Shown here: piece after piece, positions 15,901 to 18,900 of the stretch
How positions within the stretch are numbered: the first letter of the stretch is position 1
Layout of the letters: every line of letters starts with the position of its first letter
From: Escherichia coli
GTDB taxonomy: Bacteria; Pseudomonadota; Gammaproteobacteria; Enterobacterales; Enterobacteriaceae
Reading direction: 5' to 3' (one strand)
NCBI RefSeq assembly: GCF_045037415.1
Contig: NZ_CP173438.1
Length of the DNA: 64,000 bases
Position numbers: made by a program

Positions 15901-18900
15901 TATTTCTCTCTCCGTCGGGCTTAGCGTCCGGCTTTGGTTAATGTACCACTGATTGTTCAGTCGGTCGGTCGCCTGACGTACACCATTTAATGACAAAAAG
16001 AGTTCCTGATGAAAAATCTCCAGCGTTGACGCTTTACTTAATACACCGTCCAGCGGTGATGGCGACAATGAACCAATCAGCCGAGCTTCAATATCATCAT
16101 CCGCAATAACTAAACGCCGGGTACGCGGAAACTTAATCGCCAGTTCAGTCAGGCAAGATAATCCCTCTCTGCGCTCACTTCTCATGGCAGAAAAAGAAAA
16201 AATGACCGCCGCAAACGAGATCCGCGACATGGCATCCTGAAATGACTCCTGACTGGTATAGGTATGGAGCTTATAAGGGTTGCCCGCAAACTTTCTGAAT
16301 AAACTCTCAATACCGATACTACTCATGACGCATTTTTCTATGAGTGCGACATTTCTCTTCTTAATTCGGCTGTGTTCCATTCTGCGGCATCTCCATAAAC
16401 AGAAGGCAAGTTAAGTTCTCTTGCACCCTGCGCGCTATTTATCCATGCATACATTTCAGCGTTGCTGTGAATTGCCAGTCGACGCATCGCACTGTTTTTT
16501 TGGGCGCTGATAGTTTTATTACTTTTCTTAAGCAATGAAGCTATCTGGTTGATGCCCCATCCTTTACCTAATAGCCGCAGTACCTTGCGCTCTGAAAGAG
16601 TGAGAATGACGGAGCGATAGCTAAAATCATGAGTTTCAGTCATTGCCGGAGAGGTCAGCATGGCGCTGATACGCTCTGCGTGCGTATTGCCGGAACGTAC
16701 GGTCTTGACCAGATTCTCAATGGGTTCAACATCAGACAATAACGTCGCCGTAGGGCACATGAGCAGTTCTACTGCCTGGGAATACCAGGAGCGTGACACC
16801 ATGAAAACCCAGTGAATTTCCCGATATTGTGAGATTAAAGAATAATAATGTTCACAAACAGAACGTGGATCTTCACTTTCACCGGCTAAATCAGCAATGA
16901 CTAATCCGGAACGACGTAATTGTAATAAGGTAAGGTCCTCCGCAGAGGCGCTGGATATTATTTCATATTCAGGGAAGTGAGTCCTCATGACCTCTTTTAA
17001 CCCTGCTTGCATAACAGGTATTTTACTGATAACAATTCCATTTTTGCAGCATCCTGGCAACATATTTCCTCCACATCCACTGTCTAAAAATTATGATGGT
17101 TTATTCAGGATATTCATTCCTTAAATGTTTCCAGCAAATTAATAGATTAAGCGAATAAATTATCCTTAGCATTCACTTTCATATCAGCATACTCCTGCTG
17201 CACAACAACTCCACTGCATGTGTCAGAAGGTTAGCATCAAATGATAACCTGGTGAAATAGCCTGGAGACATTTAAAATATCTACATTAAGTTGTTAGGAA
17301 TACTTAATGAAAAACAGAAATCACATTCATTTAATTATAAATTAAATGATATCCCTTCCCGCAGAATGCGGGAATCACACAATCAATATTTATTCAATAA
17401 AATCTGATGATTTTAACTTGTTAACACTAAAAAACGCGCCCAGCTATCTATTATCCTGACCCGTAAAGGCTAAAACAATAAATTCATTATAGTGATAATA
17501 TTCATGTGATAGTTTGTTTGCGGCGAGAGATAATTCGCTTTTTATCACCGAGCTTGTCCCGATAACCAGGATTAATCAGCGCAATTTTGATCTTAACCTA
17601 CCTCAAAACAACCGTGCTTCATGATACAAATGGATTCTCATTATCTGAACAATACGCAGCACGTCTATGACAAAGGGCGAGTTATGCAAACTGAGCAACA
17701 GCGAGCCGTAACGCGGCTTTGTATCCAGTGTGGATTATTTCTTTTGCAACATGGTGCGGAAAGCGCGTTGGTTGATGAGCTTTCCTCACGACTGGGTCGG
17801 GCGTTGGGAATGGACAGCGTCGAAAGTTCTATCTCTTCGAACGCCATAGTGCTGACAACTATTAAAGATGGGCAATGCCTGACATCGACACGAAAAAATC
17901 ACGATCGCGGCATTAATATGCATGTGGTGACTGAAGTCCAGCACATTGTGATTCTTGCGGAGCATCATCTGCTGGATTACAAAGGCGTAGAGAAACGATT
18001 TAGCCAAATTCAGCCATTACGTTACCCAAGATGGCTGGTAGCCTTAATGGTTGGCCTTTCTTGCGCCTGTTTCTGTAAACTCAATAACGGTGGCTGGGAT
18101 GGTGCCGTCATCACCTTCTTTGCCAGTACGACCGCGATGTATATCCGCCAGCTGCTGGCACAACGTCATCTTCATCCACAGATCAACTTTTGCCTTACCG
18201 CTTTCGCCGCCACCACCATTTCCGGATTGCTTTTGCAACTCCCCACTTTCAGCGATACACCCACCATTGCGATGGCCGCCAGCGTTCTGCTGCTGGTGCC
18301 GGGCTTTCCGTTGATTAATGCCGTCGCCGATATGTTTAAAGGCCACATCAATACCGGACTGGCACGCTGGGCGATCGCCAGTCTGCTGACGCTGGCTACC
18401 TGCGTCGGCGTGGTGATGGCACTGACGATTTGGGGGCTACGCGGATGGGTGTGATCGAGTTTCTGTTTGCATTGGCGCAGGATATGATCCTCGCCGCCAT
18501 TCCAGCGGTCGGCTTTGCGATGGTGTTCAACGTTCCCGTGCGGGCGTTACGCTGGTGTGCGCTGCTTGGCGCGATTGGCCATGGTTCACGAATGATCTTA
18601 ATGACCAGCGGGCTGAATATTGAGTGGTCAACTTTTATGGCTTCTATGCTGGTCGGCACCATTGGTATTCAATGGTCGCGCTGGTATCTGGCGCATCCGA
18701 AAGTGTTTACCGTGGCGGCCGTTATCCCTATGTTCCCGGGCATATCGGCTTATACCGCAATGATTTCGGCGGTAAAAATCAGCCAGTTAGGTTACAGCGA
18801 ACCGTTGATGATTACCCTGTTAACCAACTTTCTTACAGCTTCATCGATTGTTGGTGCGTTATCCATCGGTCTTTCCATTCCTGGATTATGGTTGTACCGC

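Follow-up and report, generated by a model that had tools for sequence, protein, structure and literature searches.

The bgl operon and the leuO region of Escherichia coli are AT-rich, are silenced by H-NS in the laboratory, are counter-silenced by LeuO and can be activated by insertion sequence (IS) elements (PMC2646131, PMC3950696). All of these properties are shared with the spacer analysed here, which lies between yjjQ-bglJ and yjjPB at 17064-17683 of a 64,000-nucleotide stretch of an E. coli genome (contig NZ_CP173438.1; the whole stretch is referred to as the window). The spacer very probably is the shared control region of these two divergent units, silenced by H-NS with LeuO as the antagonist. 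It differs from the bgl and leuO regions in that two divergent units share one silencer, and in that the selected IS insertions act on yjjP and not on the regulator operon. The closest described system is the yjjQ-bglJ/yjjP region of K-12, which is the same locus, with identical flanks, the same genes and the same divergent layout. There the spacer is 618 bp long (RefSeq annotation), K-12 position 4603476 corresponds to 17064 of the window, and the difference is that the central 166 bp of the present strain are another haplotype, 12% divergent and containing an 8-bp hairpin.

The H-NS-silenced yjjQ/yjjP control region has already been published, and the feature itself is known. The locus is a textbook-style case of H-NS silencing with LeuO counter-silencing that has been dissected experimentally before, and its confirmation here adds nothing new. 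The added value lies in a yjjP start at 17684 rather than at 17621, in one map that unites the MarA, CsiR and IS-insertion results of earlier studies, in an invariant yjjP-proximal module that is explained by no published regulator, and in the pattern of strictly conserved flanks against a hypervariable AT-rich centre. The module, the start-codon point and the pattern of flanks and centre are mildly new. The units and the spacer between them are as follows.

15703-16380, minus strand: bglJ coding sequence, LuxR/GerE-type regulator
16338-17063, minus strand: yjjQ coding sequence, LuxR/GerE-type regulator (PF00196), first gene of the yjjQ-bglJ operon, overlapping bglJ by 43 nt
17064-17683, unstranded: divergent AT-rich intergenic region, very probably regulatory, 620 bp between yjjQ and yjjP
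17684-18454, plus strand: yjjP coding sequence, 256 amino acids, ThrE family, putative succinate exporter subunit
18445-18918, plus strand: yjjB coding sequence, ThrE_2, same orientation as yjjP and overlapping it

The start codon of yjjQ (CAT, minus strand) occupies 17061-17063 and the ATG of yjjP occupies 17684-17686; the spacer is therefore exactly 17064-17683. GerE/LuxR domains are found by Pfam in YjjQ and BglJ, ThrE in YjjP and ThrE_2 in YjjB, in agreement with the RefSeq names, so that the gene identities given in an earlier, sequence-only reading of this DNA hold. BglJ is a partner of RcsB (PMC3950696).

The evidence for silencing comes from the literature and from base composition. 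The yjjQ-bglJ operon is repressed by H-NS and activated by LeuO, and it is OFF in laboratory conditions, where repression is dominant (PMC5025477, PMC3950696, PMC4264507; the H-NS/LeuO literature on this operon also includes PMC2646131). It is derepressed when hns is removed (PMC3950696, PMC5025477), and the spacer is listed as 'yjjP < HNS > yjjQ' in a table of genomic SELEX (systematic evolution of ligands by exponential enrichment) results (PMC3946193). The G+C (GC) content of the spacer is 34.5%, compared with 50.8% in the window as a whole. A value this low is reached by only 1.2% of all 620-bp windows, which form three troughs in the 64 kb. The lowest values within the spacer, 26-28%, are found in the sub-windows at 17264-17413. 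TpA steps number 8.9 per 100 bp in the spacer and 4.4 in the window. The DNA is markedly AT-richer than the genome over hundreds of base pairs, as is expected of an H-NS-silenced region. The description of the 620 bp as strongly AT-rich in the sequence-only reading is borne out, and the two AT-rich strings quoted in it occur once each, at 17329-17355 and 17389-17420.

Sites resembling sigma-70 promoters were located by a promoter scan, and two of them are listed here.

17159-17187, minus strand: predicted sigma-70-like promoter facing yjjQ, CTGATA-17-GATAAT, predicted start near 17152
17506-17534, plus strand: predicted distal sigma-70-like promoter facing yjjP, GTGATA-17-GATAAT

The same hexamers, CTGATA-17-GATAAT, are given for yjjQ-bglJ in an RpoD SELEX table (PMC3946193). 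This promoter is conserved in six Escherichia sequences, and its -10 element is partly conserved in Citrobacter. The distal site facing yjjP is E. coli-specific and is not conserved in other Escherichia. In total, seven sites were found in the spacer, against 3.3 +/- 1.8 in shuffled sequences, a slight excess of the kind that AT-rich DNA would give. Because this excess is slight, the matches other than the two backed by literature or conservation are not claimed.

The core LeuO site of the cas promoter has been described as a 19-bp palindrome of 7-5-7 architecture that recurs almost identically at leuO (PMC6698644). It was derived here from the K-12 cas and leuO regions, which carry ATATTCA-TACTG-TGAATAT and ATATTGA-TTTGG-TGAATAT, and the core ATATTCA-N5-TGAATAT was used for the scan. 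Two candidate sites were recognized.

17110-17128, unstranded: candidate LeuO-like 7-5-7 palindrome, ATATTCA-TTCCT-TAAATGT, matching the core at 12 of 14 positions
17498-17504, plus strand: candidate perfect LeuO half-site, ATATTCA, inside the genus-invariant TGATAATATTCAT

The first of these is the only spacer match of at least 11/14 (chance P about 0.02) and is largely conserved in Escherichia; no perfect palindrome was found in the spacer scan, the best match being 12/14. Compared with LeuO site IIa of cas (Cascade), ATATTCA-N5-TGAATAT, the spacer has one such 12/14 match and one perfect half-site, whereas the perfect palindrome is absent. Regulation of yjjP by H-NS and LeuO is reported, by its title, in the 2008 study of Stratmann, Madhusudan and Schnetz (J Bacteriol 190:926), whose abstract reportedly also describes a LeuO site over the yjjP promoter that is needed for full derepression of yjjQ.

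In the mechanism proposed on these grounds, the long AT-rich body of the spacer would be a binding platform from which H-NS silences the promoters at both ends in laboratory conditions. The lowest-GC part, 17264-17413, together with the unconserved centre that overlaps it, would act as the composition-dependent platform, or nucleation zone, from which H-NS would bridge or spread to both promoter-proximal flanks. LeuO, a LysR-type protein, would bind several spacer sites, near both ends, and would restructure or displace the H-NS complex, with derepression of the yjjQ-bglJ promoter or promoters as the result. An IS insertion between the AT-rich platform and the proximal yjjP promoter would uncouple yjjP from silencing. 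MarA, and CsiR when over-produced, also reach the spacer.

Several points weigh against the reading of the spacer as an H-NS-silenced control region, antagonized by LeuO, for both units. Near-matches to the high-affinity H-NS motif TCGATAAATT, counted at no more than two mismatches and compared with composition-matched shuffles, are not significantly above composition (4 observed, 1.8 expected, P=0.13), and their density is 4x that of the window; the sequence supports H-NS binding via composition and not via a specific motif. The candidate palindrome at 17110-17128 lies downstream of the predicted yjjQ start, and it does not obviously fit the LeuO sites of this region, which are reportedly central or distal. 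Silencing by H-NS with LeuO antagonism had been stated in the sequence-only reading for both operons. The papers that cite the 2008 study uphold it for yjjQ-bglJ, the only unit for which LeuO action is confirmed from the literature; the LeuO site reported over the yjjP promoter is not equal to activation of yjjP by LeuO. Finally, the native levels of LeuO and BglJ do not close the feedback loop (PMC5025477).

Two further regulators have been placed on the spacer. Its resemblance to the promoters of the mar/sox/rob regulon consists of one exact element.

17234-17248, plus strand: MarA binding site, marbox core gcatcaaatgataac, exact 15-mer found, near-invariant in Escherichia

In a study of enterotoxigenic E. 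coli (ETEC) H10407 by chromatin immunoprecipitation and sequencing (ChIP-seq) of MarA, 'yjjP<>yjjQ' is a '+++' target with this same 15-bp marbox core (PMC5684230). The presence of the core is established by the exact match in the present strain, and binding itself is taken from the ETEC H10407 literature. When CsiR-FLAG was induced, a ChIP peak was seen at U00096.2 position 4601377 and yjjP mRNA rose 23-fold; gadX, gadW and cadC are among the other CsiR targets listed (PMC5217608). The peak maps to about 17186 of the window, at the yjjQ-facing promoter. Since gadX, gadW and cadC are classical H-NS-silenced loci, the effect of CsiR at the spacer may reflect non-specific counter-silencing.

Insertions upstream of yjjP form a separate line of evidence. 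During the evolution of K-12 in the mouse gut, insertions of IS1, IS2 and IS5 upstream of yjjP were selected repeatedly, and one of them doubled yjjP expression under aerobic conditions and brought a fitness gain of 0.03-0.05 (PMC4674774, PMC5094792). Relative to yjjP, the IS1, IS2 and IS5 insertions lie at -111, -185 and -256, or about 17573, 17499 and 17430 of the window. Up-regulation of yjjP, the gene of a putative succinate exporter, has been selected repeatedly in the mouse gut. Natural insertions also occur. In strain TUM13064, an IS1 with a 9-bp target duplication is present at 17512-17520 (locus 2122-2888), where it splits the distal yjjP promoter-like site. In strain GCU-H1, another IS1 with a 9-bp target duplication is found inside yjjQ at 16761-16769 (locus 1371-2138); it is similar to a laboratory mini-Tn10 allele with constitutive bglJ. 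Genomes with split or partial matches are few, about 15-25 per spacer half, of 5,426. The E. coli strain PS3Tanimalfeces2 matches only the last 62 bp of an 820-bp query, which suggests a deletion at the locus. A deletion is also suggested in Escherichia albertii, where only residues 204-256 of YjjP were detected beside yjjQ.

Conservation was examined at two levels. Within the species, 15600-19100 matches several complete genomes at 100% identity and occurs in 5,424 of the 5,426 complete E. coli genomes, and the spacer is present in about 5,400 of them. Beyond the species, one scan of species-representative genomes with a YjjQ query gave 80 loci, and the divergent yjjP / yjjQ-bglJ layout is seen in 74 species. 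The spacer measures 387-709 bp in 52 of the 74, with a GC content of 32-44%; yjjP has about 55%. The remaining 22 species (Klebsiella, Kluyvera, Raoultella, some Citrobacter and others) have 1.8-2.6 kb between yjjP and yjjQ. In K. pneumoniae, the only one of the 22 that was inspected, the gap (locus 1153-3235) contains a gene for a monooxygenase dependent on flavin adenine dinucleotide (PF01494) and a gene for an AraC-type regulator, a pair that looks like pobA/pobR. The AT-rich divergent spacer is judged to be ancient because the divergent layout and the AT-rich spacer recur across enterobacterial species. Cross-genus conservation of its sequence is limited to the two Shine-Dalgarno regions, the block 17268-17310, the marbox area and the yjjP-proximal module, which is the strongest.

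17068-17072, minus strand: yjjQ Shine-Dalgarno sequence, GGAGG, within the cross-genus conserved block 17064-17082
17268-17310, unstranded: conserved AT-rich block ATTTAAAATATCTACATTAAGTTGTTAGGAATACTTAATG, of which the TTAGnAAnACTTAAT part is recognisable across genera
17335-17500, unstranded: hypervariable Escherichia-specific centre, whose left part overlaps the lowest-GC stretch
17673-17677, plus strand: yjjP Shine-Dalgarno sequence, AAGGG, separated from the ATG by 6 nt; its consensus CAGgGCgA is shared between genera

Compared with most genera, Escherichia has a spacer longer by about 200 bp, and the extra central DNA is unconserved; over 17340-17475, cross-genus conservation is essentially absent. 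The centre is also where E. coli strains differ. Of the 22 differences from K-12, 20 fall in 17335-17500, a divergence of 12% against 0-1.1% in the flanks (Fisher p=2e-10), and a third of all E. coli genomes are only 90-95% identical over 17380-17683. The centre contains a perfect 8-bp hairpin at 17356-17374, TTCCCGCA-GAA-TGCGGGAA, with a folding free energy (dG) of -8.7 kcal/mol and a z of -4.3. The hairpin is haplotype-specific, K-12 having TGC-AAAA instead, and looks like a quasi-palindrome completed by templated mutation.

The yjjP-proximal module is composed of two elements.

17587-17593, plus strand: candidate regulator site, the invariant TTGATCT, roughly 42 bp ahead of the proximal start predicted for yjjP
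17622-17629, plus strand: putative extended -10-like element TGnTAnAA, here TGATACAA, predicted start near 17636-17638

TTGATC (17587-17592) is present in 74 of 74 species, including all 22 with genes between yjjP and yjjQ, and the strict TGnTAnAA form is present in 53. The -10-like element is located 35 bp downstream of TTGATC in 51 of the 67 measurable species and 34 bp downstream in 13 (64/67 together). Relative to the yjjP ATG, its position ranges between -40 and -69, and the 28 nt between TTGATCT and TGnTAnAA are unconserved. A fixed spacing from TTGATC combined with a free distance to the ATG fits the architecture of a promoter, and the two elements would represent the core yjjP promoter, of the extended -10-like kind with a weak hexamer, plus a regulator site. 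TTGATC as the -35 element of TGnTAnAA is ruled out, as the spacer between them would be 32 nt. Compared by eye, the TTGATCT block does not fit the sites of FNR (TTGAT-N4-ATCAA), CRP, IHF, NtrC or BglJ-RcsB, nor sigma-54, sigma-32 or sigma-E promoters. A BglJ-RcsB box (wwTTCykA) was sought by eye in the yjjP-proximal block 17565-17636, the only block scanned, and none is evident there. The sequence-only reading was incomplete in that the spacer also holds this conserved module, the binding of MarA and CsiR, and adaptive IS insertions.

The module is the basis of the strongest alternative, according to which transcription of yjjPB depends chiefly on a conserved proximal promoter that needs an activator (TTGATCT at about -42 plus TGnTAnAA) and would answer to a physiological regulator, and the H-NS/LeuO layer is an Escherichia-expanded overlay that acts mostly on yjjQ-bglJ. 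This account is possible, if somewhat doubtful. In its favour, TTGATC and its spacing are kept while the distance to the ATG drifts, and the module persists even with a monooxygenase/AraC pair lying between yjjP and yjjQ. The weak -10-like hexamer is typical of activator-dependent promoters, and the additional, unconserved length of the Escherichia spacer fits an overlay. The gut-selected IS1 at -111 leaves only the module upstream of yjjP, yet expression rises; IS1 could, however, supply outward transcription of its own, and none of the factors whose motifs were compared by eye (FNR, CRP, IHF, NtrC, BglJ-RcsB) fits the block. A proximal promoter is, moreover, compatible with H-NS silencing of yjjP and not exclusive of it. 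That TTGATCT-28 nt-TGnTAnAA, found 40-100 bp upstream of yjjP, might be the physiological yjjPB promoter under an activator bound at about -42 is offered as a tentative proposal from comparative sequence. If it were true, the H-NS/LeuO silencer of K-12 would amount to an overlay expanded in one lineage, from which the IS insertions selected in the gut would uncouple the proximal promoter. An activator-dependent promoter in this position would also point to the natural signal by which the putative succinate exporter is turned on.

The reading of the spacer as a control region silenced by H-NS can also be confronted with the view that its AT-richness is a mere scar left by horizontal acquisition of the yjjQ-bglJ cassette with its flank and has no regulatory role under selection. 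The yjjQ and bglJ genes are themselves GC-poor (about 44-47%), the AT trough (16719-17791) reaches into the 5' part of yjjQ, and foreign AT-rich DNA is a typical target of H-NS (PMC2646131). The divergent arrangement is nevertheless kept in 74 enterobacterial species, so that any acquisition must be ancient, and conserved blocks and published factor sites lie in the spacer. The sequence changes while its AT-richness persists, suggesting that composition or structure is under selection. A mere scar is very unlikely.

Inside the spacer there are six open reading frames (ORFs) of 30-38 amino acids, and all but one of them lose the frame, the start or the stop in other Escherichia. The exception is a 30-amino-acid ORF on the minus strand at 17179-17271. 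A search of Rfam at E<=1 gave no match in the spacer, the only matches being three tRNA-Leu genes at 14139-14458. No conserved ORF and no RNA-family match is thus present, and the earlier statement that no ORF is supported here stands. A weak terminator-like hairpin with 6 base pairs, of which 3 are G-C, and a downstream TTTTT is found on the plus strand at 17522-17539, inside the distal yjjP promoter-like site, and is unconserved outside E. coli. The presence of an unannotated gene for a small protein or small RNA in the spacer is extremely improbable: the ORF at 17179-17271 is open in 5 of 6 Escherichia sequences, and the weak hairpin with its T-run is terminator-like, but this ORF lacks a Shine-Dalgarno sequence, carries a frameshift in one species and coincides in part with the yjjQ promoter, the remaining ORFs break in close relatives, Rfam is empty even at the permissive threshold, and the spacer centre is unconserved.

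The left and right limits of the spacer depend on the start codons, and for yjjP an upstream in-frame ATG at 17621 has been used in an older annotation, giving a YjjP of 277 amino acids and a spacer of 555 bp. The abstract of the 2008 study reportedly gives this '555-bp' length, which counts from ATG 17621. As a start codon it is not conserved, being frameshifted in Escherichia sp. E1V33 and replaced by GTG in two others. YjjP aligns from residue 1 of the 256-amino-acid form in 67 of the 74 species and from residues 2-6 in the other seven. The comparison of sequences supports a start of yjjP at 17684 and not at 17621; the upstream ATG is unsupported, and the 620-bp definition of the spacer is therefore right. 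Conservation of the 'TG' of the spurious ATG/GTG at 17621 would be explained by its place in the putative TGnTAnAA element.

In the RefSeq annotation, the gene order around the spacer is the same in an identical strain and in K-12: the leuQPV tRNAs, yjjZ, fhuF, bglJ and yjjQ are on one strand and yjjP, yjjB, dnaT and dnaC are on the other. The three tandem tRNA-Leu genes at 14139-14458 (leuQPV in K-12) are located upstream of yjjZ and fhuF. The other two AT-rich troughs of the window, at 36171-37722 (minimum 620-bp GC 0.35) and at 56308-57743 (0.285), are candidate H-NS-bound regions. Elsewhere in the window, two 12/14 matches to the LeuO palindrome, at 28988-29006 and 29029-29047, are found 41 bp apart, start to start, in the intergenic region 28899-29259, which is probably tsr / btsT(yjiY)-like by the gene names assigned from the translations.

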